A stretch of DNA of 64,000 bases. Origin: an uncultured bacterium (GTDB taxonomy: Bacteria > Patescibacteriota > Minisyncoccia > Phycocordibacterales > DATDWN01). Position 1 is the stretch's first letter. Every line of letters starts with the position of its first letter. The translations under genes and the position numbers were made by a program. Below the pieces are notes generated by a model. That model was given only the letters and a program-made list of their open reading frames with translations. It was not told where the DNA came from and searched no databases. Of this stretch, positions 20,375 to 40,627 are shown piece by piece. The stretch covers positions 10,243 to 74,242 of the forward strand of contig CAIOTC010000016.1 in assembly GCA_903861205.1 (NCBI GenBank), written 5' to 3'.

Positions 20375-20446
20375 GGCCTGGTAGCCAAGTAGAAAGGCGT
20401 TCCTCTGCAAAAGGAATATGCGCGGGTGCGATTCCCGCCCAGGCCT
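20375..20446 (+). tRNA. tRNA-Cys (GCA)
   Basis: Acceptor ggcctgg/ccaggcc, anticodon loop ctGCAaa, T-arm gcgggtgcgattcccgc, discriminator U. CCA is not encoded. Confidence 0.75.
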
Positions 20447-20477
20447 CAGAAAAAGCAAAACTTTTTCTAACAAGTTT

Positions 20478-20559
20478 GCCCGAGTGGCGGAATTGGCATA
20501 CGCGCACGACTTAAGATCGTGTTCCGAAAGGAATGTGGGTTCGATGCCCACCTCGGGCA
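20478..20559 (+). tRNA. tRNA-Leu (TAA)
   Basis: Acceptor gcccgag/ctcgggc, E. coli-like D-arm tggcggaattggcatacgcg, anticodon stem cacga/tcgtg with loop ctTAAga, long variable arm ttccgaaaggaa, T-arm gtgggttcgatgcccac. The anticodon loop is uninterrupted, so there is no intron. Confidence 0.8.
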
Positions 20560-20612
20560 CTTTGAAAAGAAAAACTGTAAATGAAAATTTCTTTAAGATA
20601 TGGACTCATGAA

Positions 20613-21302
20613 ATGAGTTATGTTTTAGGCTATGTTGCGGCAGATGGATGTATATTCAAAGATAAAACAAGAGAAAATTCTTGGGTTTTTACTATAACCT
20701 CAAAAGACAAAAGCCATTTATATAAAATTAAAAAAGTATTAAGTTCAGAATATAAAATTTCTCAAAAACCAAACGGTACGGGTGGCATAGCTTACCATAT
20801 ACAGATTCGTAATAATACCCTTTGTAAAGATTTGTTAAATCTTGGTATTACACCCAAAAAAACTTACGATTTGAAACCACTTTTAATACCAACAAAATTT
20901 TTAAGTGATTTTGTACGTGGCTTTTTTGATGGCGATGGAAGTGTATATATTTATGAGGTTAATAATACACCACAAATCAAACTTGGATTTGTTAGTGTAA
21001 GCCTACCTTTTATTAAAGATTTAAATGATAAACTTTGTAAAAAATTAAAGATACCTCTCAAAATAATCCACTCTTATGAAATGAGTGGAAGAGCAACTAA
21101 ATACACTGTTGATTTTTATGTAGATGATAGTAAAAAATTTTACAAATATATTTATGGTAACGAACCAACCATTTATCTTTCTAGAAAAAGAAAAATATTT
21201 GAAAAATGGAATCGAATAAATAGAAGGTCTTATTCTAAAAAATCATATCCGTCTAAAATAGGATGGCACCTGAATTCAAGTAATGTAGAAATTACAAAAT
21301 AA
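20613..21302 (+). CDS. LAGLIDADG-family homing endonuclease (two-motif, free-standing between tRNA genes)
   Basis: MSYVLGYVAADGCIF (motif 1) and VRGFFDGDGSVYI (motif 2). The track ORF from 20418 overlaps both upstream tRNAs, so the start was trimmed to ATG 20613. Confidence 0.8.
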   Translation: MSYVLGYVAADGCIFKDKTRENSWVFTITSKDKSHLYKIKKVLSSEYKISQKPNGTGGIAYHIQIRNNTLCKDLLNLGITPKKTYDLKPLLIPTKFLSDFVRGFFDGDGSVYIYEVNNTPQIKLGFVSVSLPFIKDLNDKLCKKLKIPLKIIHSYEMSGRATKYTVDFYVDDSKKFYKYIYGNEPTIYLSRKRKIFEKWNRINRRSYSKKSYPSKIGWHLNSSNVEITK

Positions 21303-22943
21303 TTATGCTATAAATATATTATTGCACCCGTAGCTCAGCAGGTAGTAGCAGCTCGCTCTTAACGAGACGGTCGTTGGTTCGATTCCAACCGGGTGCACCA
21401 TAGTAGAATTTGGAGTATCAATTAGCTGTTTTAGCGTGTAAATATGGGCTGTTTTTGTGGTTCCAAATGCCGAATAGTCGTATAAAACGCCTTCTGGAAA
21501 AATCATCTCTTGAAACTTAATCTTATCGGTCAGTTTTACCTCGTACCAAAGCTTGTAAATGTTGACCATAAAGTACAGGCAGTAGTTGACGCAAGTTTCC
21601 ACATCAAATTCCTCGATCTGCAAGTCATTCCGGTTTAATCGGAGTACGGTTATTTTTTCTTTGATGCGATCCAGCTCCTCTTTGGCCGTCTCACTATCAA
21701 AGACATTTTGTTTGGTTAATTCAACGACTCTCACTTTCTCCTCCTCAACTTTCTCAATGTTCCGGTCGATGGTAGCTATGTCGGTATTGAGTTCAGTGTG
21801 CTTGCCTTCCCAATAATCAATAATTAAAGATCGGAACATGCCCATTTCCTCTTTCTTGGGAGCAAGCCGAGTAAGAAATTCCATGAAATGTTCCTCGAAC
21901 ACTTCTTTCTTGACGCTTTTCTTGTGGCACTTGGCACAGTGGTAATAGGCATAGCGACCGCCCAGCTGGCCTCGTGACCAGCTTCCGGTAAATCTGCCAC
22001 CGCACACGCACCGGGCAGTCACTCGGAGAGGAAAGTCTGGATTGAGTGCGCGTTTCGGATGGTTGGTGAGTCGGCCACTTTTAGTGCGTATATAAAACTG
22101 GACCCGTTCAAATAGTTCGGTAGTAATCAACGGCTCAAACACGCCCTGGTTTTCTTTGCCTTTATGCATGAAGGTGCCAGTATAGATTTTGCTTCGAAGC
22201 ATTTTGTGGATGACCTGCTGTCTGATTTTATTTCCTTTACCAGTAGTGAATCCTAACTGATTGGCCATTCTGGTGATCTCCGACTCTTTGTAAATTCCTT
22301 TGGCGTATTCCTCAAAAAGTTTTTTCACCATCGGCGCACGTTCCGGATCGGGTACGATAGTTTTATATCCGCCCGGCTTCATGACATTGTTATAGCCAAC
22401 CGGGGCGACCCATGAAATCTCTCCTTTGCTCACTCTTTTATTTATGCCGTCTTTGGTGCGTTCGCTTTTGGCATCGTTATCAAACTGGGCAAACGAGGCC
22501 ATGACGTTTTCCAAAAGTTTGCTCGTGGAGTTGTCACCGCCGATCGGTTCGGTCACCGAGTAAATTCTCACGCCATACTGGCTTAAGAGGGACCGGATCG
22601 CGACGTGGTCGGCCATGTTCCGGGCAATGCGATCTATTTTGTAAATTAGGACGGCATCTACTTTGCCTTTGTGTGTTCGGCAGTATTCCAAAAGTCTCAC
22701 TAGAGCTTTCCTATTCATGGTCTTGGCCGATTCACCGGCATCGATGAATGGTTCGCAGGCCAGTTTGAAGTGATGGTCAATAACCCATTTTCTGGAGAGA
22801 TCGACTTGCGACTCCAAGCTGAAGTTATGCTTGGCCTGTTCCTCGGTGGAGACACGTGCATAAATCACCGCTCGCATCGTTGTATTTTTTTGTTCAATCT
22901 GCTCATTCATAGGTTTTTCTTTGAAAGGGCTCGGCAACAACAC
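21303..22943 (-). CDS. Large serine recombinase (phage-integrase type)
   Basis: N-terminal resolvase catalytic block AVIYARVSTEEQ...SLESQ, a recombinase domain, and the zinc-ribbon CVCGGRFTGSW...YYHCAKCHKKS. The last about 25 codons are antisense to tRNA-Lys. Confidence 0.8.
   Translation of the reverse strand: MLLPSPFKEKPMNEQIEQKNTTMRAVIYARVSTEEQAKHNFSLESQVDLSRKWVIDHHFKLACEPFIDAGESAKTMNRKALVRLLEYCRTHKGKVDAVLIYKIDRIARNMADHVAIRSLLSQYGVRIYSVTEPIGGDNSTSKLLENVMASFAQFDNDAKSERTKDGINKRVSKGEISWVAPVGYNNVMKPGGYKTIVPDPERAPMVKKLFEEYAKGIYKESEITRMANQLGFTTGKGNKIRQQVIHKMLRSKIYTGTFMHKGKENQGVFEPLITTELFERVQFYIRTKSGRLTNHPKRALNPDFPLRVTARCVCGGRFTGSWSRGQLGGRYAYYHCAKCHKKSVKKEVFEEHFMEFLTRLAPKKEEMGMFRSLIIDYWEGKHTELNTDIATIDRNIEKVEEEKVRVVELTKQNVFDSETAKEELDRIKEKITVLRLNRNDLQIEEFDVETCVNYCLYFMVNIYKLWYEVKLTDKIKFQEMIFPEGVLYDYSAFGTTKTAHIYTLKQLIDTPNSTMVHPVGIEPTTVSLRASCYYLLSYGCNNIFIA
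21324..21400 (+). tRNA. tRNA-Lys (CTT), CCA encoded
   Basis: Acceptor gcacccg/cgggtgc, anticodon loop ctCTTaa, T-arm gttggttcgattccaac, then a-cca. It lies entirely inside the 3' end of the opposite-strand recombinase ORF. Confidence 0.75.
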
Positions 22944-25831: not shown

Positions 25832-27115
25832 ATGCTTAAAAACATAGTTTCTAACCAAAAACTGCAAAAAGAGCAACTTTTAACTCTTTCGTATATAGGC
25901 CGAACCAAAGAGCCATTTGCTAGAAAATGGCTGGATTCAAATTTAATAAAAGTTGTTTTGGGACCTCGCCGAGCTGGGAAATCGGTATTTTCTCTTATGC
26001 TCTTAAGGGATCGTCCGTTCATGTATTTCAACTTTGATGATGAGGTGTTGTCGAGTGCAGGCGGAATAGCCACCGATGAATTAATGAAAGAACTGCACGC
26101 CGCGTATGGCCAAGTGAAAACCGTTCTGTTTGATGAAATACAAAATCTTCCAAATTGGGAACTCTTTGTTAACCGGCTACACCGGGAAGGATACAATCTC
26201 GTACTCACCGGATCGAACGCACATCTCCTCTCAAAAGAACTCGCCACGCATTTGACCGGCAGACACATGCCGATAGAAATACTGCCGTTTGATTTCAATG
26301 AATTTCTCCGCGCAAAGAAGTTTCAAATAAACGAAGAGTACATTGCTCTACCGCAACAGCGCGGCGAGCTTTTAAATCTCATGGAAAACTATCTTGTCAA
26401 CGGCGGATTTCCTGAAGTGGCGGTTAATAACGTTGATCCTAAAGATTATCTTGAAGTCTTGTTTGATGCTTTGGTTTTCAAAGATGTGGTTAAAAGGCAC
26501 AGGGTTAAATTTTCGACTCAAGTAGCAAATTTGGGAGGACATTTAATAAACAATTTTGCAAATCTATACACAATACGAAAGATTCTTGAAATTCTAAATT
26601 TAAAGAGCGCATCCACTATAGAGAAGTACATAAAATACTTAGAAGAAGCATACCTCATATTTTCTCTGCTCCGGTATTCGCCAAAATCCATACAACGGAT
26701 AAAGTCTCCCCGAAAAGTGTACGCAGTCGACAACGGTTTTATAACCGCAAAAGCAATTCAACACTCTCCGGACAAAGGCAAACTCATGGAGAATCTTGTT
26801 TTTACCGAGCTGGTAAAACGAGGAGTGAAGCCAAATCGGGAACTGTTTTACTACAAAACCCGAAATGACAAGGAGATTGATTTTGTTGTAAAAAAAGGGA
26901 CGGAAGTAACCGAATTGATACAGGTATGCTACGAGTCCATAAATTCTGACGTTGAGCAGAGAGAAACAAAGGCGTTAGTTGAAGCAAGCGGCGAATTAAA
27001 AGTAGAAAAACTTACCGTACTTACCTGGGATGAAAAGCGAGAGATAAAAAGGGACGGCAAAGTAATACAGCTCATACCTCTCTGGGAATGGTTGCTTGAA
27101 GAGACTCAAAAATAA
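25832..27115 (+). CDS. AAA-type ATPase with DUF4143-like C-terminal domain
   Basis: Walker A VVLGPRRAGKS, Walker B VLFDEIQ. The overall layout matches the widespread ATPase/DUF4143 family. Confidence 0.65.
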   Translation: MLKNIVSNQKLQKEQLLTLSYIGRTKEPFARKWLDSNLIKVVLGPRRAGKSVFSLMLLRDRPFMYFNFDDEVLSSAGGIATDELMKELHAAYGQVKTVLFDEIQNLPNWELFVNRLHREGYNLVLTGSNAHLLSKELATHLTGRHMPIEILPFDFNEFLRAKKFQINEEYIALPQQRGELLNLMENYLVNGGFPEVAVNNVDPKDYLEVLFDALVFKDVVKRHRVKFSTQVANLGGHLINNFANLYTIRKILEILNLKSASTIEKYIKYLEEAYLIFSLLRYSPKSIQRIKSPRKVYAVDNGFITAKAIQHSPDKGKLMENLVFTELVKRGVKPNRELFYYKTRNDKEIDFVVKKGTEVTELIQVCYESINSDVEQRETKALVEASGELKVEKLTVLTWDEKREIKRDGKVIQLIPLWEWLLEETQK

Positions 27116-27119
27116 ATTT

Positions 27120-27578
27120 ATGCCACAGGAAATCGCCATCAAAAACTTAATATTCGTGGATTGCGAGGGACACGGACCGGCACCGACATTGAATGATCCG
27201 GTGGGTTTTGAATTTGGCGCGGTCGCGTATCCCTCAAAGCAAACATTTCATGGAACTGGGGCGACAAAAGAAACGTTTGAGGATTTCGACAAATGGATTT
27301 CGTCCGTGGTAGAGAAAGGTTTCAGGCCTCTATTTGTCAGTGATAATCCGGCATACGACTGGCAGTTCATAAACTATTACTTCCACTTGCATCTCGGCAA
27401 AAACCCGTTCGGCCACTCGGCACGAAGGATCGGTGATTTTTATGCCGGACTTGTCGGTGACTTTACCAATGCGAGCTCATGGAAAAAGCTACGGGTTACG
27501 GCGCATGATCACAATCCGGTAAACGATGCTATGGGTAATCTCGAGGCATTCGAGAGGATACTAAGCGGAGAAAGATAA
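27120..27578 (+). CDS. DEDDh 3'-5' exonuclease domain protein (DnaQ-like)
   Basis: FVDCEGHG (Exo I), VSDNPAYDWQFI (Exo II), HDHNPVNDA (Exo III, H-x4-D). Starts TAAatttATG directly after the ATPase stop. Confidence 0.6.
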   Translation: MPQEIAIKNLIFVDCEGHGPAPTLNDPVGFEFGAVAYPSKQTFHGTGATKETFEDFDKWISSVVEKGFRPLFVSDNPAYDWQFINYYFHLHLGKNPFGHSARRIGDFYAGLVGDFTNASSWKKLRVTAHDHNPVNDAMGNLEAFERILSGER

Positions 27579-27779: not shown

Positions 27780-30101
27780 ATGCCCAAAGAAGCCGCCAAC
27801 AATCAAAATCAGACATTCACCGAGCAGGACGCTCGTATTGTTATTAATCGTAAACTTCAGGATGCTGGATGGATTTTGGAGGGACCGGACAAAAATGTTC
27901 TGACTGAACAACACTCCGAAGCTGGTTTTATGGACTATCTCTTACTGGACCGGAATGGTCGTAATCTTGCGCTAGTAGAAGCAAAGAAAGATACGATTGA
28001 TCCATACACGGCAAAGAATCAGGCACGCGGTTATGCGGATGCAAACAAATGCAGGTATGTATTTCTCGCTAATTCCGAACAGCTGTATTTTTGGGACATT
28101 GAGGATGGTGATGCAAATCCGATTGAACGCTTTATTTCTCCTCAAGATTTGCAACGTCGGCACGACCTCAAGCTATCTCGCAAACCCATCTCATCAGTGC
28201 CACATGATACCAAGATTTCTGATCGGCCGTATCAAGTCGAAGCTTCAAATATCATTGCCAAAGAATACGACGAGGGCAAACGTTCGTTTCTTTTGGAAAT
28301 GGCAACGGGGACCGGTAAGACTCGATTAGCCGCGGCTATCATTGACCGTTTTCTTAAAGCTCATCAGGCAGAGCGAATACTTTTTATCGTTGATCGAATA
28401 GAACTTGCTAAACAAACGCTGGATGCTTTTCAAGTTGCCTTCAAAGATGACTACCGCGCTGTTCGTTATAAACCCGGCAAACATGCGGTATTTGGTGGGG
28501 CAAATATTGTTGTCGCTACAATCCAAAGTTTGAATATTCACTTCAAAAAAGATTTTACGCCTGGCTATTTCGATCTGGTTTTTAACGACGAAGCCCATCG
28601 ATCTATTTATGGTGAACTGCCACGTCAGGTGGTGGAATATTTTCAAGCAGTTCGGATAGGCCTTACCGCTACTCCAAACGATTTTCTCAAAAATATCGAT
28701 GTTGAGAAATTGCAGGACAATGATCCACTGAAGCTGGAGTATCGCTACACGCGCGATACTTACAAGCACTTCGGATGCGAAATGAGCACCCCCACGTTCC
28801 GCTATACCATTCAGGATGGTGTTCGCGAGGGGTTCTTGGTTGCTCCCAAAATTGCCCGAATGGTTTCTTTAATTACTAAAGAAGCAGTATCCGAGGAGGG
28901 TTGGAAAATTGAGATAGACGGAGAAGATTACACATATAGAATCTCTCAGCTTGAAAAACAGGTACTCATACCAAAGCGCAATGAGCTTATCTGCCGACAG
29001 TTTTTGGAGAACGCACTAAAAACTCCGGACGGTGCAATTGGTAAATCGATTATTTTTGCGGTCTCACAAAATCATGCTGTTGCTCTTGCTCGAGAACTGA
29101 ATCGTCTAACTCCTGAACATAATGGCAAATTTGCGGAAGTCATCACCTCTCGTGTTAAAGGAGCTTCTGATCTCGCTAAACAATTCCGCAAAGATGAAAA
29201 CTTCTATCCTCGCGTGGCGGTAAGTGTAGACATGCTCACAACTGGCTTTGATTGTCCGGAAGTATTGAATATCGTCCTTGCTCGTCCGATCGCCTCGCCG
29301 ACCTCATACATTCAGATCAAGGGTCGCGGCACTCGCAAATACACCTTTCCGGACGGGACTGAGAAAAAGCAATTTCTAATCCACGACTTTTGTGAAGTAG
29401 TTAAATATTTTGAGGAAGAATATGACTTTGAAGCCCCTCTCCCAACTCCAACCGGCGGTACTGGGACCGGCGGAGGAACGCCGCCCCCACCTCCACCGCC
29501 CGTGGAAGTAAAAACGTATGAAGGTGCAGATGTGCTGGCTTTTACCGAGATGATGGAGATCGGCCCGGAGGGAGAAAAAGTTGATCGTCTAAGCTACATC
29601 ACAAAGTGGGAGAAAACCATCAAACAGGTTATTGCCGAAAACCCCGGCTTTGAAGAAAAAATCAAAGTGGGCGGTGAAGACGAAGAAATAAGCGAGTACT
29701 TGAGAGTAAATGTGTTTGATAAACCCACTGAATTTTTCAATGAACGCAATCTTTCGCGTGCTTATAGAGTATTTGCTGACCTATTGGATTATGTTCGGGC
29801 TGGACTTGGCATTGAAAAGCTACCAACGAGAGAAGAGCAACTCACAGAACTTATTGAGAGCATTAAAGCTGACCATGATCTTGATCTCGAGCAAGCACGG
29901 CTATTAAAAATTCTCGTTCGTCAGCTAAGTCAGAGCCCTCGTCTTATCACGCAGTTTGAGCAGGGCGATTATTCATTCCTTGATCAGCCGCCGTTTACGC
30001 AATTCGGTGGCACGCGTATGTATGTGTCCCGTTTTGATGGCAAGATAAAACCGGTATTTGAAGCCGTGCGAACCAGTCCGGCTTTTACCATAGTCCAATA
30101 A
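27780..30101 (+). CDS. hsdR: Type I restriction enzyme R subunit (HsdR)
   Basis: N-terminal PD-(D/E)xK nuclease MDYLLLDRNGRNLALVEAKK. SF2 helicase motifs EMATGTGKT, FNDEAHR, LTATP. A Pro/Gly linker PTPTGGTGTGGGTPPPPPPP and a C-terminal region follow. Confidence 0.85.
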   Translation: MPKEAANNQNQTFTEQDARIVINRKLQDAGWILEGPDKNVLTEQHSEAGFMDYLLLDRNGRNLALVEAKKDTIDPYTAKNQARGYADANKCRYVFLANSEQLYFWDIEDGDANPIERFISPQDLQRRHDLKLSRKPISSVPHDTKISDRPYQVEASNIIAKEYDEGKRSFLLEMATGTGKTRLAAAIIDRFLKAHQAERILFIVDRIELAKQTLDAFQVAFKDDYRAVRYKPGKHAVFGGANIVVATIQSLNIHFKKDFTPGYFDLVFNDEAHRSIYGELPRQVVEYFQAVRIGLTATPNDFLKNIDVEKLQDNDPLKLEYRYTRDTYKHFGCEMSTPTFRYTIQDGVREGFLVAPKIARMVSLITKEAVSEEGWKIEIDGEDYTYRISQLEKQVLIPKRNELICRQFLENALKTPDGAIGKSIIFAVSQNHAVALARELNRLTPEHNGKFAEVITSRVKGASDLAKQFRKDENFYPRVAVSVDMLTTGFDCPEVLNIVLARPIASPTSYIQIKGRGTRKYTFPDGTEKKQFLIHDFCEVVKYFEEEYDFEAPLPTPTGGTGTGGGTPPPPPPPVEVKTYEGADVLAFTEMMEIGPEGEKVDRLSYITKWEKTIKQVIAENPGFEEKIKVGGEDEEISEYLRVNVFDKPTEFFNERNLSRAYRVFADLLDYVRAGLGIEKLPTREEQLTELIESIKADHDLDLEQARLLKILVRQLSQSPRLITQFEQGDYSFLDQPPFTQFGGTRMYVSRFDGKIKPVFEAVRTSPAFTIVQ

Positions 30102-30105
30102 ATTT

Positions 30106-31584
30106 ATGGCACTTCAATTCACAAATTCAGATATAAAACAAAAAGTAGATCGCATTATGGACGAGCTTTTTGCTGGTGGCGTAAATAACCCCATGACTGC
30201 TATTGAGCAAGTGAGCTATCTGATGTTTTTAAAATCTCTAACTGAACTTGATGAACACCAGCAGAAGATCGCTGAACTATCCGGCAAAAAATACGAGAGT
30301 ATATTTAACGGTAAAATCAGCAAATTCGGCTGGCGTGTTTTGAGCCGATTGTCCGGAGATGAACTGTATAACACGCTCACAGAAGTGTTTGAACATTTAC
30401 ATGAACTGCCAAATCTTACCCAAACTGGCAAGACGCTTTTTCGGCAGGCGCATCTTAAAATCTACAATCGACCAACACTCAAGTCGGTAGTGAGTATTAT
30501 CGACGGAATGGATTTCAACAACACTGAAAAATATGACACCGATGTTAAGGGCGACATGTATGAGTATCTTTTAAATCGTATCGCGGTCTCCGGTACAAAT
30601 GGCCAATTTCGCACACCACGCCATATTATCAAGATGATGATTGAGCTGGTAAAACCAAAACCCTCGGACCTCATTCTCGATCCTGCTTGTGGTACAGCTG
30701 GTTTTCTTATTGAAGCCTACAAATATATTCTCCGTGCCAACACGAGCGAAGAAGAGCTCTCTAGTGGCCATGACACCGGAGACAAGCTCACACAAGCCCA
30801 GCACGAATTTTTACGCACGAAGGCTATCAACGGTTTCGATAACGATGCCGACATGATTAAGGTGGCGATTATGAACCTCTATCTCCATGATCTTTCTCAG
30901 TCCAACGTTCTAAATTTTGATCCCCTTACTCTTCCTGAAGAGAAGAAGCGCAAGTATGACCTCGTGCTCGCTAACCCTCCATTTGCCGGGACTATCAATT
31001 CCGAAGCAATTCAGGAGGATATAAGCCTGACCACCTCAAAAACCGAATTACTCTTTTTGAAATACATGTATGACCATTTGGTGGATGGCGGTCGCTCGGC
31101 GGTAATCGTTCCCGAAGGAGTTTTGTTTGGTTCAACCGGAGCACACAAGAAAATGCGTGAGCTTTTGGTGGATACCTGCAAAATTGATGCCGTTGTCAGC
31201 TTGCCGTCCGGAGTCTTTAAGCCATACGCCGGAGTGAAGACGGCGATTATTTTCTATACCAAAGGCGGTAAAACCGACAAAGCTTGGTTTTACGAAGTTA
31301 TTGGTGACGGATTCACCCTTGATGATAAACGCCAGCCGGACGAGAAAAATAATAATCTCAAGGACTTGCCGACGGCATACGAGAAAAAAGAAGTCAGTCC
31401 TTGCAGTTGGTTTGCCGCGCGCGAGCAGATTATTGCCGAGGATTACAATCTTACCGCTTCACGCTACAAGCCGGTAACAGTTGACCAAACAAGTCATCGC
31501 GATCCGAAAGAGATCATCGCCGAAGTTCAAGAACTTGAAGCTGAGATTGTCGATGGACTTAAAAAGCTTGGCAACAAAATATGA
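30106..31584 (+). CDS. hsdM: Type I restriction-modification methyltransferase subunit (HsdM, N6-adenine)
   Basis: Motif I LDPACGTAGFL, motif IV LANPPFAG. Confidence 0.9.
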   Translation: MALQFTNSDIKQKVDRIMDELFAGGVNNPMTAIEQVSYLMFLKSLTELDEHQQKIAELSGKKYESIFNGKISKFGWRVLSRLSGDELYNTLTEVFEHLHELPNLTQTGKTLFRQAHLKIYNRPTLKSVVSIIDGMDFNNTEKYDTDVKGDMYEYLLNRIAVSGTNGQFRTPRHIIKMMIELVKPKPSDLILDPACGTAGFLIEAYKYILRANTSEEELSSGHDTGDKLTQAQHEFLRTKAINGFDNDADMIKVAIMNLYLHDLSQSNVLNFDPLTLPEEKKRKYDLVLANPPFAGTINSEAIQEDISLTTSKTELLFLKYMYDHLVDGGRSAVIVPEGVLFGSTGAHKKMRELLVDTCKIDAVVSLPSGVFKPYAGVKTAIIFYTKGGKTDKAWFYEVIGDGFTLDDKRQPDEKNNNLKDLPTAYEKKEVSPCSWFAAREQIIAEDYNLTASRYKPVTVDQTSHRDPKEIIAEVQELEAEIVDGLKKLGNKI

Positions 31585-31585
31585 T

Positions 31586-32758
31586 ATGGCAACAAAATGG
31601 AAACAATTCAATCTGTCGGATATCACTACAATCTCTGAGCATAGAGTATCTCATTTCGATGGAGAAAAAGACTATATTGCGACTGGTGATATATATTTGA
31701 ACAAAATTATCGGTAATCAGCGAGTGAGTTACGAGAATCGGCCAAGTCGTGCCGATTTAATCATGAGTGAAAACGATGTGCTGTTTGCCAAAATGAAAGA
31801 TACGGTAAAAGTTTTGGTCGGCTCAAAAGATACCTCGGATAAGATATTTTCGACTGGTTTCTACATCCTAACGCCGCACAAAGATGTTTCGAAAGAATTC
31901 CTATATTTCAATTTTCTGTCTGATGATTTCAATCGCCAAAAGAATTTACTCTGCACCGGGGCAACAATGTCTGGCTTGAATAATGTTGGGTTAAAAAAAA
32001 TAACTCTTCAACTTCCTGTAAAAAGTGACGGAAGTCCTGACATTGATGAGCAGAAACGGATCGTCGCTATGCTTGAAGAAGCGGAAACATTAAAAAAGAA
32101 ACGTGCTGAAGCAGATCAGAAAATGAATGAGTTGGCCCCAGCACTTTTCTCAGAGATGTTTAGTGGAAATAAATTCGATGATCCTAAGCTGGGGACATAT
32201 ATTACGAACTTAACGAGTGGTGCTCGTGGATGGGCAAAGTATTACACTGGCGTGCCTGGCTACAAATATATTCGTATTCAGAATGTAAAAAACGCTAAGT
32301 TACATTTCGATGACGTGCAATATGTTGAGGTGCTGGATTCTGCCGAATCAAAAAGGATAAAAGTACAAGAGGGTGATCTGCTTATCAGTATTACGGCTGA
32401 TCTGGGTCGTACTGCTGTAGTTGATAGAAAAACCGCAAATGAAGGTGCCTATATAAACCAGCACATTGCACTGGTACGGCTTAATAATGAGTACAACCCT
32501 CTGTTTGTAGCTCACTATCTTGAAAATGATGGCAAGGGACAATTTTTGAAATACGGACAAGCCGCCTCAAAAAAGGGCTTAAATTTTGACTCTATAAGAT
32601 CACTCAGGATTCCGAAACCACCTATTGAATTGCAAAACAGTTTTGTAGATAAGGTAAACGAAATTGAGATGCAAAAAGAGAAGCAAAAACAATCCGCCAT
32701 TCAGCTGGAAGTTCTTTTCTCATCGCTATTGTCGAGAACTTATAGTGGTCAATTATAA
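31586..32758 (+). CDS. hsdS: Type I restriction-modification specificity subunit (HsdS, two target-recognition domains)
   Basis: ATG at 31586 overlaps the hsdM TGA (ATGATATGG). Repeated TRD/coiled-coil architecture and the conserved C-terminal SRTYSGQL. Confidence 0.8.
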   Translation: MATKWKQFNLSDITTISEHRVSHFDGEKDYIATGDIYLNKIIGNQRVSYENRPSRADLIMSENDVLFAKMKDTVKVLVGSKDTSDKIFSTGFYILTPHKDVSKEFLYFNFLSDDFNRQKNLLCTGATMSGLNNVGLKKITLQLPVKSDGSPDIDEQKRIVAMLEEAETLKKKRAEADQKMNELAPALFSEMFSGNKFDDPKLGTYITNLTSGARGWAKYYTGVPGYKYIRIQNVKNAKLHFDDVQYVEVLDSAESKRIKVQEGDLLISITADLGRTAVVDRKTANEGAYINQHIALVRLNNEYNPLFVAHYLENDGKGQFLKYGQAASKKGLNFDSIRSLRIPKPPIELQNSFVDKVNEIEMQKEKQKQSAIQLEVLFSSLLSRTYSGQL

Positions 32759-32760
32759 TT

Positions 32761-33657
32761 ATGTCGACTATATCTGCAACAAGAAGAGGATTTTTATATC
32801 AAGATCGTTTTGCAACCGCGACCTATCTTGAGCAGTGGCAAAGTAAGAATATCAAGCAGTTTTTCATTGATTATCCATTACCAAATCAAAAATCAATTGA
32901 TGTCCGGCATATTGATGTTTTGGATCAAGAAAATGTATATGAGGTAAAATCTGGCGAAGAATTCAAAAAAGATAAGCGCAAAAAAGAGTCATCAGGGATA
33001 AGAGATGCACTAATAAACTTAAAAGAATATTTTGATTCAAGAAATTCATGTTTACTAAATTTAGTGATTCGAAAGGGTTTTAGAGGCAACATAACCACTT
33101 ATTGGGATCATATAACACAAGTTCAGACGCATTCTTTTTCACTACCGCAAACAAAAACTCAAGTTACGTGGTTGTTCAATAAATTACTATTACCTGGAAT
33201 TAATTCCCATAAAGAATTATTTGATTTTTGTAAAATCGTAAAAGTTGCTGACTTTGCTGACGACGAACCGAATAATGGCAATGATCCATTCCCAGATATT
33301 GATGACTTTGTTATGGGGAAAATAACGGATATAACGAAGGAATTTAACGCACAAGTGTCTTGTGTTGAATATCCAGATCAAATTTTGATGAATGACTTAT
33401 ATCACAAATGTAGATTATATGCTGGAACAGGAGAGGATGTGCATGAGATTTTTACTTCTATCATAATTGATTTTATTACACACAGAGTTTTTCTAGATGC
33501 AAACTATACCCCCAATTCAAATAGAGGTAAGAGTAGAGATGACATAAAGAAAGAAATCGATAAAAAAGTCAATCAATATTTGAATGGAAACTTGGCGGCG
33601 AATATGAATAGTACGAACGCAGATCCACGTCTTACAAACGAAGGAAAAACACCATGA
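32761..33657 (+). CDS. Uncharacterised protein with predicted PD-(D/E)xK-like nuclease core
   Basis: N-terminal helix RRGFLYQDRFATATYLEQW, then hydrophobic strand plus D (HIDVLDQ) and E-V-K (NVYEVKSGEE). Start is 3 nt after the hsdS stop; stop overlaps the next start (ATGA). Confidence 0.4.
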   Translation: MSTISATRRGFLYQDRFATATYLEQWQSKNIKQFFIDYPLPNQKSIDVRHIDVLDQENVYEVKSGEEFKKDKRKKESSGIRDALINLKEYFDSRNSCLLNLVIRKGFRGNITTYWDHITQVQTHSFSLPQTKTQVTWLFNKLLLPGINSHKELFDFCKIVKVADFADDEPNNGNDPFPDIDDFVMGKITDITKEFNAQVSCVEYPDQILMNDLYHKCRLYAGTGEDVHEIFTSIIIDFITHRVFLDANYTPNSNRGKSRDDIKKEIDKKVNQYLNGNLAANMNSTNADPRLTNEGKTP

Positions 33658-36600
33658 AAAAAATAACGAGCGGACAAGCTAATATAGCAGGAATAAATGC
33701 ACAAGCATGGGCTTCGATGTCTCTGTTTTTACAGTATTTGCGTGATCCACGATTTTCGCATATTCATCTCGAAGTACCTAACTTTCAAGACTTTAATCTT
33801 GTTTTTAATGATGGTCATAAAATTATTTGCGAATCAAAGGATAGAAAAGTTAATTTTAATTACGGACATTTAAGGCCTATCTTAGAGAATATAAACAGGA
33901 GCAAGGCTATTGGTGATCAAGATGAAATTCTTATCGTGTGTCGTAACGCAAATAAAAGCTTAATCTCTGACGTGGAGCATGTAAAGTATTTTGAAGAACT
34001 AAAAAATAAATTTAAGAAAAAAGGTTATGCCGGGACAGAAATTGCATTGCTTCCGAAGGTAAAATTTTGGGTAGTGCCACCCTCTTTTAATTCAGAGGTA
34101 ATTTATTCTTTATTTTCGGAATTAATAAATTTTTGGCTTCCTCCCGAGGATGTCAAGAGATTTATTGACAGTATTTTGATCCAAAAGATTTACAAAGGCT
34201 CGGCAAGTGGGGCTACTTATAGTCGTTCCGATATTCTTAAAGAAATAGAAGAATTCAAAAAAGAAGTTCAGAAAGGGAGTGATTATTTCAATTTACGAAC
34301 AAAGAAAGATAAGCAATTCAAGGAGCTAGAAAAGATTGTTAAGAGCAATGGAAAAGTCACTCTAGGGAGCCGTTCGCTTTCTGCTTTTTCAACCCGATGG
34401 GATTTAATGTCATTTGCGATGGATAGACTCAAGGCTAGGAGCGATCTTGATTTAAAAAAATGGGGTGATCTATGGCAGTTGAACCGGGTTTATTATTTTA
34501 CCTTCGGTATTTTCCACGTCTTTGAAGCCAACCTACAAACAGACAAAAATCGGAAGTATATTTTGGGCTATATAAAAAAATACACAAAAACAATCCGAGG
34601 TTTTTACCGATCTGATTTTTTTGATGTGGATGTCGTAAAGATTGTCACCAAAATTATAGAGGGGCCTGATGGTGAAAAATACTTCAATGATGCTTTTGCT
34701 ATCATCAAGGATTTAATCACTTTTAACGAAAAGGAGTTTTTCTATCTTAAGGATAGCGGTTATGATCGTGGCGAATGGGAAAAAGGAGAACTTTGTAAGC
34801 TCCTACATAAGATTTACACCCGTGCAGATGCGGTTCTGAAGCAAAAGATTTTCGATCTGCTTGTTTCGGGATTTAATGTCACAGAGGACGACGGAGAATT
34901 CATTCACCATGCACCGACTGATGTGTACGGGATACTTCGTGAATGGCTGGATGACGATTTCAAGGGCAGATTTAAGAAAATAGTGAAACTCGCCAGCGAT
35001 CAATATCAGCGTTACTACAAGAAATTTGGTAGCAAAATTGAGTTTAAGGGCTGGGAACATATGGGTGGAGGCACATCCTTTGGTCCGGGTGGCCACCATG
35101 TTGGGGATCGCCATTTTGTCGGCTTTATCCTTGCACCAGCTATTCGTAAATATTACGACACGGATAAAATTAAGGGGTGGAATTTTATCAAACAGCAGTG
35201 CATTACCACAACAGCAAAGGTCAGCAAAACGAGACCGGATTTTCTTAATCGCTCAGTATACGAAATAGTCTTAAGCCGTTATGCAGATTCCAATAAGAAA
35301 ATATCAAATGAGGCGTTTGGCATCTTGAAAGAGTTTATTCTTTCCAGAAGAGGCATACCCCACAAGACCGACTTAATCTACCAAGCGGTCGTTGGTTCTG
35401 ATATGCCGGATGAAAAAAAATGGAGACTGGTTGAAATTACCACTAAGAAATATGGGATACCGGTCAATCCTTTTGCCGAGCTGATAGTCACTGATCTTGC
35501 AAAGAAGAGTTACGGACCGGCAAAAACCACACTGAAGCAGTGGTTTGCCGATCCAAAGTATTATAAGAACTTCAGATTTGATCTCGACTCAGTTTCGAGT
35601 ATTAAGGCGCTCCTTGATAGCGACCTAACTTTTGCTGTCGAATTATTCAAGGCACTTATCACAAGTGACTATATAAAAAATGGAAAGAGCGACCACTTTG
35701 GTGCTTATACTGTCGCGGCTTTGTTAAACGATATCATCAGGAGAGATTACGCTATGGGATTGTCCATAATTCGCCTACTGGAGAAGGAGGAGAAGTTGAG
35801 CGATGACCAGCAAATTATTTATTCATTCAGCCTGTTCAACCATCACGGAAACGATGATTCAGATGATCAGGAATTGTTATTAAAAACATATGATGAAGTA
35901 GTTGACCCATTCTTAAAAAAATACAGCGATGATATCTCTAAAATCTGCCAAAGATTAACAGATGCCAATTGCAGAGAAGCTTTTGTTCAGTTTGCGGCTA
36001 GACTGGCGGTCAAGAAAAAAATGGCAGATGCATTAAGGATTGTTCGTACTTTCGTAAACGATCCCGATCCATATCTCCCAGGCAAAGACCCCCATGACCT
36101 CGAAGATAAATACAATGAGCATAAGAGCGTGATGGAAGGTAAAGAGCCGAGCTCAATTAGGTCGGTTCGTGGTTGGTGTGGTTGGGTTCTTATGAAATGT
36201 TCCGTTCTTGATGGACGAGATCAGGTTCCAGAAGTTATTGAGCTTACTAAAAAGTTAATCAACGATGAAAATTACTATGTGATTCACATGGCTTGTTTTG
36301 CTCTCGGTCAAATAGCAAGAAATCGCCTTACTGTTTTACCGTCTGATAAAAACACACTCTTTTTTAATGATGATAAAGAAAAAGCTCTCCGCATGGCTAA
36401 AGAAGTTGAGGTCATTGCTTTCGGCCTTTTGGACAGTCTTATTTCGTGGCTACCGTTAGTGCAGAAAGCTATGACCAAGAGTGTTTTGCATGTATTTGAC
36501 CCACTCAGAGCACTCAACGAAAAAGACTCGCTTAGACTTATAACCGCCCTCGCCAAACTTCCAGCTGACGCGACGGAGGAATCTGCCCCATTATTTGTTT

Positions 36601-37295
36601 TTTGTGCTGAATTCAGAAAAAATGCTTATAAGGACTGGCGATTTGGTATGCCTGGGTTATATGACGATCTTGGGCCGGAAAAATATGATGAGAAGAAATT
36701 TAAAGCTATTTTGATGGACACTATCAAAGAGCTACAAAAGAAGGACTCGGACAATTGTTTCCGGTTTGCTTCATCTGTTGAGCATGCAATGAGAGAAGCC
36801 TCACCAGAAAACGGCGAGCTCGAAAAGAATACAGAGATTGCTCTTGAATATCTCGATCTACTTTCAAATGTTTATGCCCATAATGTTTTCAACTTGATCT
36901 ATCAGATTATGGAGACAAAATTCGGTACTCCGGATAAATATGTTGAGAAGTGGTATAGCTTATTGATCAAATGTTTGAGTGTTGAAAAAGGATTCTACGA
37001 AGAGCAGGCTAAAAAAGGCAACATGGCAAATGTCTATTGGTATCCTGCTCTATATCACTCTCGAATAATGGAGTTAGTCCATGAAAAGCTTGGTCAAGAC
37101 AAATTTATGCAAGCGGCCAAGATATTCTTTTCTTTCCCGAAAGAACTCGATCTCCACGAGACAGCTAACTTGGTTTCAATTATCCAAGAGCTAGCGAAAA
37201 CCGATAAAGATGCAAAGGCGATTATAAAAACACTTATCGATAAAAATCCGAGCAAATATTGGTCGTTGAAAGATAAATCTAAAAAATCAAAATGA
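33654..37295 (+). CDS. Large (1213 aa) uncharacterised protein: N-terminal module paralogous to ORF 32761 fused to about 1100 aa of alpha-helical repeat-like sequence
   Basis: The N-terminus SGQANIAGINAQAWASMSLFLQYL...NLVFNDGHKIICESKDRK repeats the helix / D / E-x-K layout of the preceding ORF. The remainder has no recognisable catalytic motif. ATGA overlaps at both ends. Confidence 0.4.
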   Translation: MKKITSGQANIAGINAQAWASMSLFLQYLRDPRFSHIHLEVPNFQDFNLVFNDGHKIICESKDRKVNFNYGHLRPILENINRSKAIGDQDEILIVCRNANKSLISDVEHVKYFEELKNKFKKKGYAGTEIALLPKVKFWVVPPSFNSEVIYSLFSELINFWLPPEDVKRFIDSILIQKIYKGSASGATYSRSDILKEIEEFKKEVQKGSDYFNLRTKKDKQFKELEKIVKSNGKVTLGSRSLSAFSTRWDLMSFAMDRLKARSDLDLKKWGDLWQLNRVYYFTFGIFHVFEANLQTDKNRKYILGYIKKYTKTIRGFYRSDFFDVDVVKIVTKIIEGPDGEKYFNDAFAIIKDLITFNEKEFFYLKDSGYDRGEWEKGELCKLLHKIYTRADAVLKQKIFDLLVSGFNVTEDDGEFIHHAPTDVYGILREWLDDDFKGRFKKIVKLASDQYQRYYKKFGSKIEFKGWEHMGGGTSFGPGGHHVGDRHFVGFILAPAIRKYYDTDKIKGWNFIKQQCITTTAKVSKTRPDFLNRSVYEIVLSRYADSNKKISNEAFGILKEFILSRRGIPHKTDLIYQAVVGSDMPDEKKWRLVEITTKKYGIPVNPFAELIVTDLAKKSYGPAKTTLKQWFADPKYYKNFRFDLDSVSSIKALLDSDLTFAVELFKALITSDYIKNGKSDHFGAYTVAALLNDIIRRDYAMGLSIIRLLEKEEKLSDDQQIIYSFSLFNHHGNDDSDDQELLLKTYDEVVDPFLKKYSDDISKICQRLTDANCREAFVQFAARLAVKKKMADALRIVRTFVNDPDPYLPGKDPHDLEDKYNEHKSVMEGKEPSSIRSVRGWCGWVLMKCSVLDGRDQVPEVIELTKKLINDENYYVIHMACFALGQIARNRLTVLPSDKNTLFFNDDKEKALRMAKEVEVIAFGLLDSLISWLPLVQKAMTKSVLHVFDPLRALNEKDSLRLITALAKLPADATEESAPLFVFCAEFRKNAYKDWRFGMPGLYDDLGPEKYDEKKFKAILMDTIKELQKKDSDNCFRFASSVEHAMREASPENGELEKNTEIALEYLDLLSNVYAHNVFNLIYQIMETKFGTPDKYVEKWYSLLIKCLSVEKGFYEEQAKKGNMANVYWYPALYHSRIMELVHEKLGQDKFMQAAKIFFSFPKELDLHETANLVSIIQELAKTDKDAKAIIKTLIDKNPSKYWSLKDKSKKSK

Positions 37296-37804
37296 CAATC
37301 TTTTACATCATCATCGGCATTATCATAGTCACCGCTATAGTAATCGCTATCTCGCGTGGAGGTCTTGCTGATGTAGAGGAAAAAGCTAAATATCGCTATA
37401 ACCGCAAGAACTTTTTTCTTACTCGAGCGGAGCATGAATGCTACGACGCTCTCGTCGAAGCTGTCGGTGCCGAGTATCACATCTTTGCCCAAGTGCATTT
37501 GCCTACTTTGGTCGATCATACAGTTCGAGGACAGGACTGGCGTGCGGCTTTGGCGCATATCAATCGGAAGTCTGTTGATTTTGTGCTTTGTGACAAAGCA
37601 TATCTCTCGCCAAAACTTGCTATCGAGCTTGATGATAAATCGCACGAACGCGCGGACCGGCAGGAACGTGATCGTGAAGTAGAACGTATCTTGCGTGAAG
37701 CCGGTGTATCGCTCTTGAGACTTGAAAATCGCGGCAGTTTTAGCCCCAGCGAATTGGCTCAAAAAATCAAAGAGACACTTAACCCCAAGTCGACATCATT
37801 ATGA
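37292..37804 (+). CDS. Membrane-anchored DUF2726-like (nuclease-related) protein
   Basis: N-terminal TM. YRYNRKNFFLTRAEHECYDAL...IFAQVHL...DFVLCDK...AIELDDKSH matches the DUF2726 pattern. ATGA overlap with the upstream gene. Confidence 0.5.
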   Translation: MTIFYIIIGIIIVTAIVIAISRGGLADVEEKAKYRYNRKNFFLTRAEHECYDALVEAVGAEYHIFAQVHLPTLVDHTVRGQDWRAALAHINRKSVDFVLCDKAYLSPKLAIELDDKSHERADRQERDREVERILREAGVSLLRLENRGSFSPSELAQKIKETLNPKSTSL

Positions 37805-38274
37805 AAATCAACAACACATTCAAACTCATCATTTCGCTTATTATCCCGCAGTTGGCAGGAGGACTGGGTAGCTACTTTACCATCGGTTCGGTGAAAGATT
37901 GGTATCCGGTGCTGGAGAAGCCCGTTCTCAATCCACCGGCATGGATATTCGGACCGGTTTGGACGACGTTGTTTCTTTTGATGGGCTATGCACTTTATCT
38001 TGTCTGGAAGGACGAGAGTGGAAAAAGCAAAGGCCTGGCCTATTGGGCTTTTGGAATTCAAATGGTTTTAAACGCGCTATGGTCGATCATCTTTTTCGGC
38101 CTGCATAGCCCGGGCGGAGCACTTTTTGAGATGATTTTTCTTTGGCTAGCCATTCTCGCCACGATCATCGCTTTTGCTAAAATATCAAAACCGGCCGCAT
38201 GGCTCCTCGTGCCCTATATTCTCTGGGTCAGCTTTGCCGGGTATCTTAACTACGCCATCTGGGCATTAAATTAA
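37801..38274 (+). CDS. tspO: TspO/MBR family tryptophan-rich sensory protein
   Basis: Five TM helices with Trp/Pro-rich loops (NPPAWIFGPVWTTLF...AYWAFGIQMVLNALWSIIFF). ATGA overlap with the upstream gene. Confidence 0.75.
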   Translation: MKINNTFKLIISLIIPQLAGGLGSYFTIGSVKDWYPVLEKPVLNPPAWIFGPVWTTLFLLMGYALYLVWKDESGKSKGLAYWAFGIQMVLNALWSIIFFGLHSPGGALFEMIFLWLAILATIIAFAKISKPAAWLLVPYILWVSFAGYLNYAIWALN

Positions 38275-39033: not shown

Positions 39034-40128
39034 ATGATAGAAGTCGCAAATACAGCTAAAGACACTTTGCATAGCGATGAATACGATCGAGAGACGGTTG
39101 AGGAATGCCGTCGGCTTGAACAGCGTTTTAGTGATAAGGAAAAAGAGGGAGACAAACCAGCCCCTTGGTACGGCTTAACTCGTGATCTAGCCCTTTATGC
39201 TTTGCGTGGCGAGAGATATCGCCGGAAGGAAGAAACCATCGCCCGACGTAGGAATGCGATGGCTGAATATCACGAGAAGCTGGACAAAGCAAAACCGGCA
39301 TCAATTGTGTATTGTCTGGCATGCCGATCGCAGATGAATGTTGTTGAGAAGGATTTACGAGGGTTTGGTAAAAAAGAACAAATTCTATTCTATTTTCGCT
39401 GTCCGGAGTGCAACGAGATGAGACGATTCTTTGATAACGGTGAGGAATACCGGCCAGCTCCACCATCGTGCATTAAATGCAGTACTCCGGTTGATCAGAC
39501 GTTCAAACGAGAAGGTTCTAAGCTGATCCATTCTTACACATGCGCCAAGTGTGGCTACCACGAGGACGACGTTATTGATCTCGATGAGAAACCGAAGGCT
39601 CCCAAAATTGATAAAGACTTCATCAAAGACCGAGAGAAGTATTGCATGAGTAAAAAGGAGGGCGACGATTACGTTAACTGGATAGTCCTCATGGAGCTTC
39701 CGCAGACAAAAGAAATGCTGGAAAGATATTCAGACGATCCTAAAGCCGACGTTATAAGCCAGATTAAAAAATTAAACATCGCTCAAGTTGAGGCTCTTTT
39801 GAAACCGGCCGTTGAGAAGGAAAAGTATCAGGACCTAGTTTTCGGCAAGCCAGAAATATATCAAGGGACTGTTATCTTGCCGTTTACGATTCAAGATACT
39901 TCGGCCGATAGGAACGACTACGACAGCCAGCTTTTTCTTAAACGTTTGATCGACGAGGCACTCGGCGAGACTAACTGGCGTGCCATGAGCGATGACTTTG
40001 GTTATAAGCTTGGATTGCTTAACGGACGGATACGAGGCGTGGAGAGTGAGAAGGACTTGGCCGAGTTGGCAAGGGTGCGACAGAAAAAACAGGACAAAGT
40101 ATCCGGTTCGGTTGAGGACAAAAGTTAA
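39034..40128 (+). CDS. Multi-zinc-ribbon hypothetical protein (364 aa)
   Basis: Four CxxC pairs (CLACRS, CPECNE, CIKCST, CAKCGY). No other motif recognised. Confidence 0.45.
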   Translation: MIEVANTAKDTLHSDEYDRETVEECRRLEQRFSDKEKEGDKPAPWYGLTRDLALYALRGERYRRKEETIARRRNAMAEYHEKLDKAKPASIVYCLACRSQMNVVEKDLRGFGKKEQILFYFRCPECNEMRRFFDNGEEYRPAPPSCIKCSTPVDQTFKREGSKLIHSYTCAKCGYHEDDVIDLDEKPKAPKIDKDFIKDREKYCMSKKEGDDYVNWIVLMELPQTKEMLERYSDDPKADVISQIKKLNIAQVEALLKPAVEKEKYQDLVFGKPEIYQGTVILPFTIQDTSADRNDYDSQLFLKRLIDEALGETNWRAMSDDFGYKLGLLNGRIRGVESEKDLAELARVRQKKQDKVSGSVEDKS

Positions 40129-40511: not shown

Positions 40512-40594
40512 GGGCGAGTGGTGCAACTGGCTAGACACGCTAGTCTTAGGAACTAGTGGAGTAATCCTTGGAGGTTCGAATCCTCTCTCGCCCA
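40512..40594 (+). tRNA. tRNA-Leu (TAG)
   Basis: Acceptor gggcgag/ctcgccc, anticodon stem ctagt/actag with loop ctTAGga, long variable arm, T-arm gaggttcgaatcctc, discriminator A. Confidence 0.7.
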
Positions 40595-40627
40595 CAAAAT
40601 TTGAAACCGCGAAAGCGGTTTTAATTT

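Follow-up and report, generated by a model that had tools for sequence, protein, structure and literature searches.

The subject of this study is a pair of adjacent genes, here called A and B, in the DNA of an uncultured bacterium of the Patescibacteriota (contig CAIOTC010000016.1, positions 10,243 to 74,242 of the forward strand). The whole stretch that was analysed, 64,000 nucleotides (nt) long, is referred to as the window, and coordinates are counted from its first letter. The pair directly follows a type I restriction-modification (RM) operon and may constitute a two-gene anti-phage module. The genes in this part of the window are the following, with protein lengths in amino acids (aa).

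27780..30101, plus strand: hsdR, type I restriction subunit (Pfam ResIII, 4.7e-39, and EcoEI_R_C; PADLOC REase_I, 6.9e-69)
30106..31584, plus strand: hsdM, type I methyltransferase (Pfam N6_Mtase, 2.7e-59, and HsdM_N; PADLOC MTase_I, 3.5e-147)
31586..32758, plus strand: hsdS, specificity subunit (Pfam Methylase_S in two stretches; PADLOC Specificity_I, 4e-54)
32761..33657, plus strand: gene A, 298 aa, predicted Cap4-type PD-(D/E)xK nuclease (partner class c13)
33654..37295, plus strand: gene B, 1213 aa, putative nuclease-fold N-terminal domain followed by a HEAT/ARM alpha-solenoid
37292..37804, plus strand: DUF2726 gene, 170 aa, membrane-anchored (Pfam PF10881, 3.3e-30)
37801..38274, plus strand: tspO, 157 aa (Pfam TspO_MBR, 3e-51)
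39034..40128, plus strand: orf364, zinc-ribbon-rich protein with no Pfam or PDB match

The genes upstream of the pair are those of a type I system by both Pfam and PADLOC, with HsdR a helicase-nuclease, HsdM an N6-adenine methyltransferase and HsdS a protein with two target-recognition domains. HsdR provides genomic context for A and B and is a possible functional partner of them. The mechanically called open reading frame (ORF) of hsdS begins with the TTG at 31481, and an ATG at 31586 sits 1 base past the hsdM stop; PADLOC Specificity_I alignments begin near residue 36 and orthologues are 393-394 aa long, and ATG 31586 is most likely the true start. Reading the junctions directly, the hsdS stop (TAA, 32756-32758) is followed by the two bases tt and then the ATG of gene A at 32761, and ATGA overlaps join A to B (33654), B to the DUF2726 gene (37292) and the DUF2726 gene to tspO (37801). 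The tight order of all seven genes, from hsdR to tspO, which the original prediction had described from the letters of the sequence, is thus borne out by the 2-nt gap and the ATGA overlaps, and its ORF map is exact. The GC fraction is 0.33-0.41 across A and B versus 0.44-0.48 on either side, with the DUF2726 gene and tspO lying within the higher-GC part. Scans for promoters and terminators were uninformative, their yield being at or near the expectation from shuffled sequence.

Gene A has no match in Pfam, NCBIfam, PADLOC v2 or PHROGs at family thresholds. Pfam Cap4_nuclease (PF14130, DUF4297) aligns to residues 5-38 at 12.7 bits (E = 0.14) and does not reach the gathering threshold of 26.2 bits. 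In an AlphaFold model (mean predicted local distance difference test score, pLDDT, of 84) a core of alpha-beta-beta-beta-alpha-beta order is joined by a helical C-terminal half, and the protein closes with a disordered tail (...NEGKTP). Foldseek places this fold with those of Cap4, HamA, LmuA and Avs3, the likeness to solved Cap4-family nucleases extending over the core and the helical extension. Across 29 homologue clusters R8, G10, F11, Y13, Q14, D37, D47, E61 and K63 are invariant, and the predicted catalytic residues are D47, E61 and K63, with D37, in addition to an N-terminal helix bearing R-G-F-x-Y-Q. A sister partner class, c5, passes PF14130 and is tied to the A family by hhalign (2.9e-5). 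Because Foldseek agrees while the Pfam score stays below threshold, the product of gene A is best described as a divergent member of the Cap4/DUF4297 fold, as judged from the modelled structure and the catalytic motifs. The Cap4/DUF4297 fold is the effector nuclease type used in CBASS, Lamassu, Hachiman and Avs3.

Gene B likewise finds no match in Pfam, NCBIfam, PADLOC v2 or PHROGs. A scan of both A and B against PADLOC-DB v2.0.0 returned 0 families at E <= 0.01, and an exact-sequence look-up of the window's B protein returned no record. The B family is tightly conserved, nearly all members being 1190-1225 aa long. The AlphaFold2 (AF2) model (pLDDT 89.6; predicted template modelling score, pTM, 0.64) divides the protein into a nuclease-fold domain at residues ~1-210 and an uninterrupted alpha-solenoid at ~215-1213. 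Within residues 7-96 the secondary structure (helix 7-28, strands 34-39, 47-51 and 56-62, helix 70-83, strand 91-96) follows the same alpha-beta-beta-beta-alpha-beta order as gene A; strand 2 opens with an acidic residue and strand 3 contains an ExK. Over 74 sequences of 38-92% identity, G13, Q17, E40, D46, E60 and K62 are invariant in this region, and the hhalign alignment of the B N-terminus to the A family, although weak (E = 5e-4 to 7e-3; 5e-3 against class c5), is in register. The proposal that A and B share an N-terminal module therefore holds up, since the motif alignment stands, the invariant residues occur in both families and hhalign finds the same register. The further proposal that this module is a PD-(D/E)xK core fits gene A, with its Foldseek matches and invariant D/ExK; for B it rests on the order of secondary structure and the invariant residues, the profile match being weak. 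Residues ~1-210 of B thus look like a putative Cap4-like nuclease-fold domain in the model.

The rest of B, which had been described as about 1100 aa of helical, repeat-like sequence, is a HEAT/ARM alpha-solenoid in the AF2 model and by Foldseek. Pfam matches nothing but HEAT/Cnd1 repeats in B members, in 13 of 26 proteins and around residues 861-889. No Walker A/P-loop was found in the sequence or in the list of invariant residues, and no nucleoside-triphosphatase (NTPase) Pfam match in the 26 members; a PDB sequence profile search with the B family gave nothing meaningful. Several loops of the solenoid are invariant, namely RPDFLNR (~527-533), GIPHK (567-571), DPDPYLPG (~801-808) and VRGWCGW (838-844). 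The Foldseek matches are CAND1, karyopherins, FANCI and Pds5, all generic HEAT/ARM scaffolds, at template modelling (TM) scores of 0.1-0.24.

One possibility raised by such matches is that A and B are a housekeeping pair, a DNA-repair or chromatin scaffold resembling the HEAT proteins FANCI, Pds5 or condensin together with an associated nuclease, and the best fold matches of B are indeed eukaryotic HEAT scaffolds, including FANCI, Pds5 and Cnd1. At these TM scores, however, solenoid matches are generic, and the distribution of the family does not resemble that of a housekeeping gene. A search of 1.84 billion (1.84e9) representative proteins with a profile of the solenoid alone recovered 370 clusters, and the family is missing from most genomes of every phylum that contains it. 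Its members are scattered over many groups of the candidate phyla radiation (CPR), Delta- and Gammaproteobacteria (including Legionella sainthelensi), Margulisbacteria, Armatimonadota and Elusimicrobia, with one archaeal fragment, of Woesearchaeota. The location in variable islands and the swappable, toxin-type domains of the partners described below also speak against a housekeeping role, which we regard as highly improbable.

The neighborhood of B was compared across 126 B-encoding loci, 101 of them non-redundant, gathered from GTDB genomes, JGI metagenomes and contig look-ups and numbered L001 onward. Conservation of this neighborhood had been set beforehand as a test, and it is found. A small gene on the same strand lies within ~60 nt 5' of B, often overlapping it, in 73 of the 77 non-redundant loci that could be classified. 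Because the pairing recurs over 126 loci from many phyla, it appears to be far more frequent than chance would allow. The small gene itself is not conserved and falls into discrete classes, as follows.

Window type, Cap4-like: 20 loci, by homology to gene A
SLFN_AlbA_2: 16 loci, by Pfam (9e-13)
About 200-aa, Mrr-like: 15 loci, by motif only (Pfam 0.16)
Cap4_nuclease (class c5 of the sister relationship above): 11 loci, by Pfam (30.4 bits, over threshold)
350-390-aa, second Mrr-like class with invariant D38 and E55-x-K57 (D..ExK): 7 loci, by motif
Membrane protein: 3 loci, by a predicted transmembrane segment
CHAT protease: 1 locus, by a weak match (2.5e-4)

The exchange of partners can be followed among close relatives. 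At L004 and L005, B proteins with 92% identity have partners from different classes. Among the window, L001 and L028, the bodies of B are 91-96% identical and the three partners all differ, and the HsdR and HsdM proteins of L028 are 91-95% identical to those of the window. Association is also maintained over larger distances, as distant homologues of A (36-42% identical) again precede a B of ~1180 aa, with hsdR-hsdM-hsdS once more upstream in one instance. Gene A is accordingly one interchangeable effector of an already known fold. PDB sequence profile searches with partner classes c12 and c9 gave nothing meaningful.

Not all B proteins carry the N-terminal domain. About 20 of the best 150 representatives are forms of 950-1020 aa that lack the nuclease-like domain (for example P0160, P0163, P0170 and P0177, from L034-L039), and some long forms of ~1275 aa (P0211 and P0234) bear an additional N-terminal helix-turn-helix domain, HTH_3. 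Three loci with a short B that were inspected still have a 5' partner, which is Cap4-like in one, a membrane protein in another and Mrr-like in the third. Because B forms without the nuclease domain retain a partner, the minimal conserved system, as far as gene content indicates, is one interchangeable effector-type gene plus the solenoid.

Two possibilities concerning B and its partners were tested and rejected. A common C-terminal adaptor domain in the manner of LmuA was not detected among the partner classes by hhalign. Nor does the N-terminal domain of B co-vary with the class of the partner, as the N-termini at L001 (partner class c5) and L028 (class c3) are 92% identical.

Three nuclease partner classes were observed to end in a disordered tail that bears a motif resembling [ED]-G-x-x-[IVL]. 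The motif is present in 24 of 29 A-family proteins, in 7 of 10 of c5 and in 7 of 14 of c12, against a background of 0.01-0.12 in the same proteins; examples are the window (33598-33654, ending in TNEGKTP), L001:449-1261, L010:9036-9632 and L042:7949-8524. The Schlafen and c9 classes have conserved tails of their own, which are different. The [ED]-G-x-x-[IVL] tail may be a candidate docking peptide for the solenoid.

Another observation concerns the beginning of B. Over its first 110 residues the window's protein (33654-34300) is only 65-67% identical to the proteins of L001, L002 and L028, whereas residues 215-900 are 91-96% identical; in distant relatives, by contrast, the N-terminus is the best-conserved part of B. 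This local drop in identity suggests that a recombination breakpoint lies within the 5' end of B, and hsdS, the partner gene and the N-terminus of B would together form a zone that is shuffled.

The range of partners raises the possibility that A and B are a toxin-antitoxin or addiction module, in which B would be a promiscuous neutralizer that stabilizes the RM system or the island and dedicated phage sensing would play no part. Every partner class has a fold typical of toxins (nuclease, protease or membrane protein), the ATGA overlaps amount to translational coupling, and recombinases and prophage-like modules are associated with the loci. A hyper-promiscuous antitoxin domain also has precedent (PMC10440598). 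An antitoxin of 1200 residues that bears a conserved nuclease active site of its own would be atypical, however, and toxin-antitoxin and abortive-infection functions are not mutually exclusive. We consider this explanation improbable.

The genes downstream of B bear on where the module ends. The original prediction had a DUF2726-like membrane protein as a third gene of the unit, and the identities given there to this protein and to tspO are correct, the former matching PF10881 and having an N-terminal hydrophobic helix, the latter matching the TspO family. A three-gene system of A, B and a membrane DUF2726 nuclease fused to the type I RM operon would agree with the ATGA overlaps that join B to the DUF2726 gene and the latter to tspO in the window, as well as with the placement of DUF2726 in a family of restriction-endonuclease-like fold (weak MTES_1575 and DUF559 matches). 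By tblastn, however, DUF2726 lies beside B in 0 of the 125 other loci, and at the closest relative, L043, where B is 92% and A 87% identical and hsdRMS again lies upstream, a convergent gene follows B and DUF2726 is missing. The GC content of the DUF2726 gene resembles the flank and not A and B, and the gene 3' of B differs at nearly every locus. Because DUF2726 is missing from the 125 other loci and from L043, it is not part of the module; on this comparative evidence it adjoins the module in the window and is not a conserved component. A three-gene system of this kind thus has very little probability, and the unit is A plus B, possibly with orf364.

The DUF2726 protein was also found to match the phage family phrog_14167 (1.3e-15, of unknown function) and, weakly, MTES_1575 and DUF559 endonuclease-like models; its gene, small and of nuclease fold, may be independent and derive from a phage. 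The next gene, tspO, is a flanking gene of housekeeping type outside the module and lies next to B solely in the window and in the L001 group.

A possible occasional third component, C, is orf364. Its homologues occur 7-1742 nt 3' of B in 8 of 66 non-redundant loci and directly abut or overlap B in four (L005:13658-14764, L020:3753-4841, L122:11444-13114 and L124:11431-12522). In the window orf364 is 1.7 kb from B, set apart by the DUF2726 gene and tspO. Members of this family (~360 aa) share invariant Cys pairs and a conserved C-terminal motif, TNWRxMSDG..YRLG, and one homologue of 556 aa has an extra C-terminal domain. Pfam and PDB searches with orf364 gave no relatives.

The link to RM systems, also part of the original prediction, is real. 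Among 58 non-redundant loci, RM genes of type I, IIG or III lie directly 5' of the pair on the same strand in 23 and within 6 kb upstream in 33; both counts come from BLAST labels only and are lower bounds. PADLOC matches on neighboring genes are mostly to RM families. The three types are distributed as follows.

Type I RM upstream: window, L028/L047, L043, L051, L122, L005, L033
Type III mod-res upstream: L003, L010, L031, L050, L066, L036
Type IIG fusions upstream: L013, L021, L030, L085, L102, L115, L001

The strength of this adjacency suggests a variant in which A and B guard the RM system upstream, being coupled to it and firing when restriction is inhibited or overwhelmed. The pair might be triggered by anti-restriction proteins that mimic DNA, or when the methyltransferase or the restriction complex is lost. 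The logic would be analogous to that of PrrC/EcoprrI or PARIS, and such a guard is a specialization of the two-gene anti-phage module, not an alternative that excludes it. PrrC and RloC are restriction-linked anticodon nucleases of the ABC-ATPase-HEPN kind, which the RM complex masks physically, and PrrC is an abortive-infection effector within a type I RM locus that serves as a backup to restriction. Like these, A and B are embedded in a type I RM locus; unlike them, they are unrelated in sequence and occur also with type IIG, with type III or with no RM system.

In favor of a guard, the pair abuts the last RM gene with gaps of -19 to about +60 nt at many loci and with three RM types (type I at the window, L028/L047, L043, L051 and L122; type III at L003, L010, L050 and L066; type IIG at L013, L021, L085, L102 and L115), and RM genes are found within 6 kb upstream at no fewer than the 33 loci counted above. 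The other 25 of the 58 loci, L124 among them, have no RM genes upstream, however, and three mechanistically unlike RM types make direct protein-protein coupling unlikely. Defence genes in general also cluster with RM systems. A guard coupled to restriction is possible but on balance unlikely; the addiction and housekeeping explanations are less likely than it.

The wider surroundings of the pair have been noted as well. Directly 5' of hsdR (25832-27578) lies a gene for an AAA_14/DUF4143 ATPase that matches the PADLOC candidate system PDC-S01 (9.3e-104). It is overlapped by a 160-aa ORF that matches the PADLOC 'Effector/Exonuclease' model PDLC00753 (3.3e-20) and has a homologue in L070, and the two look like a second candidate defence pair. 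Because this pair joins hsdRMS and A-B, the segment from 25.8 to 37.3 kb looks like a defence island. Genes for tRNA-Cys, tRNA-Leu and tRNA-Lys are found at 20.4-21.4 kb (20375-21400), and a tRNA-Leu(tag) gene at 40512-40595 has a strong hairpin terminator after it (40601-40624); the defence genes, and the variable region that contains them, fall between these two sets of tRNA genes.

Serine recombinases, ParB-methyltransferase genes, terminase-small-subunit-like genes, GmrSD or a KAP NTPase are nearby at other loci. A recurrent block flanks the pair in several CPR genomes (flanks of L003, L004, L018, L027 and L012) and consists of a large serine recombinase, a ParB-N6_N4 methyltransferase, a protein with helix-turn-helix matches of terminase-small-subunit-like type and an unannotated protein of ~520 aa. 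Judged by its makeup, this block may be an integrated element or a prophage. Phages or plasmids as the typical carriers of the module were an idea that was dropped after negative searches of plasmid, phage and IMG/VR collections, though prophage-like genes flank some CPR loci.

Taken with the RM context, the properties of A and B lead us to favor, with a probability of roughly 0.55, a two-gene anti-phage module that has a modular sensor-effector logic and is linked to RM systems. The domain folds, the conserved catalytic residues, the linkage of A to B, the swapping of effectors and the RM and mobile-island context are directly supported. B would be the conserved core, its HEAT/ARM solenoid of ~1000 residues acting as receptor and regulator with no need for an NTPase, and the small upstream gene would supply an interchangeable toxic effector, in the window a Cap4-type DNA endonuclease. 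Most B proteins would in addition have an N-terminal Cap4-like nuclease domain of their own with an intact catalytic set. In an uninfected cell the solenoid may bind and restrain both the partner effector and this nuclease domain. A ligand derived from the infection would then act on the solenoid, releasing the restraint or causing the nuclease or nucleases to oligomerize, and the freed enzymes would degrade DNA and abort the infection. Oligomerization drives the activation of the Cap4, LmuA and Avs3 nucleases. At the 3' end of an RM operon, its typical location, the module could serve as a second layer behind restriction. The physical complex of A and B, the trigger, DNA as the target and the abortive outcome are the parts of this scheme that we infer.

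All of the partner classes are effector types that have been validated elsewhere, such as the Cap4 nucleases and the Schlafen tRNases; bacterial Schlafen nucleases, which cleave tRNA, are validated anti-phage effectors (PMC12330615).

Several points weigh against a two-gene anti-phage module. The partner is absent in 4 of the 77 loci, including the sole cultured isolate. This isolate, L. sainthelensi (L040; CP025491.2, 1368589-1392161), has the only homologue in a cultured organism and lacks the small partner; a tyrosine integrase gene lies directly 5' of its B, preceded by a gene for a 977-aa Mrr_cat_2-ResIII helicase protein, and an unannotated gene for 559 aa lies 3' of B. The control of seven unrelated effector folds by one solenoid needs a generic coupling mechanism. 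Adjacency to RM genes could reflect mere clustering in islands, and CPR genomes have closely packed genes throughout. The kinship of the A and B N-termini depends on hhalign E-values of ~1e-3, and the Pfam Cap4 model recognizes the N-terminal domain of B in 0 of 26 members. Finally, no homologues of B were found in plasmid or phage collections, including the GenBank phages, by tblastn, or in a scan of IMG/VR.

The proposed module can be compared with known defence systems. The closest architectural analogue of gene B appears to be DSR2, in which an N-terminal effector is controlled, with no NTPase, by a HEAT-type solenoid that senses the phage tail-tube protein (PMC11850899, PMC11263360, PMC10981675). 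Like DSR2, B has ~1000-1200 aa, no NTPase and an N-terminal effector domain, in B a putative one, that is followed by a long HEAT-type solenoid. Unlike B, DSR2 has a Sir2 NADase as its effector and is a single gene with no separate swappable effector. B has no Sir2 match, the PDB profile search with B returned no DSR2 chain, and DSR2 was outside the top 50 Foldseek matches; what the two have in common is the broad solenoid class only.

Upx offers a second precedent for a PD-(D/E)xK nuclease joined to a large sensor that is free of an NTPase. It is a single protein of ~1270 aa, described by Gao 2020, whose sensor recognizes the phage terminase (PMC13601566, PMC13099982). Upx works alone as a monomer, with a C-terminal nuclease and a beta-rich sensor at the N-terminus, whereas B begins with its nuclease-like domain and is otherwise all-alpha. 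For B there was no PADLOC or PDB sequence match to Upx.

Other systems that use Cap4-type nucleases differ in their sensors. Hachiman/AbpAB (HamA-HamB) senses DNA damage through a superfamily 2 helicase, HamB or AbpB, whereas B has no helicase or P-loop, the only helicase near the pair is HsdR, and Hachiman does not exchange its effector for unrelated folds. In Lamassu (LmuA-LmuB-LmuC) the sensor is an SMC/ABC ATPase, where B is a HEAT solenoid with no ATPase, and LmuA has a common C-terminal domain to which the effector domains are fused, whereas no domain shared among the partner classes was detectable here. In contrast to Cap4 of CBASS, the C-terminal half of gene A is only helical, and no CD-NTase and no SAVED or CARF match was found by Pfam or PADLOC on any gene between 25.8 and 40.1 kb. 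There is likewise no STAND NTPase match in or near the module, which separates it from Avs3. ARMADA was considered and turned out to be a YprA-helicase system, and the B family is not described in a preprint on modularity networks.

The claim that the genes could not be assigned to a described system thus stands insofar as the libraries of hidden Markov models assigned neither A nor B, and it has to be qualified insofar as the fold of A, that of Cap4, was already known. The literature consulted describes no HEAT-solenoid protein paired with swappable effectors, and catalogues newer than PADLOC v2 might hold a name for one. In our best reading, A and B are an undescribed sensor-effector defence module, with a solenoid as the predicted sensor, that is linked to RM systems. 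The nuclease cores, the scaffold, the conserved neighborhood and the RM link of the original interpretation are retained and its three-gene unit is not. A more far-reaching and decidedly tentative version, which we think will probably not hold in full, is that B represents an unrecognized class of NTPase-free HEAT-solenoid receptors that may control at least seven effector folds in trans and would be appended to type I, IIG and III RM operons as a guard firing on the evasion of restriction.

If validated, B would represent a new receptor family in bacterial innate immunity, in which a HEAT/ARM solenoid works without ATP hydrolysis and draws on a menu of effectors encoded by separate genes. The 'one sensor, many effectors' design of Lamassu, CBASS and Avs would then have evolved also on a scaffold made purely of repeats. 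The module is compact (~4.5 kb) and has clearly predicted catalytic residues, which makes it testable, and its position at the tail of three types of RM operon would allow layered or guard-type immunity to be tested directly. For the most part it occurs in CPR bacteria, about whose defence repertoire little is known.

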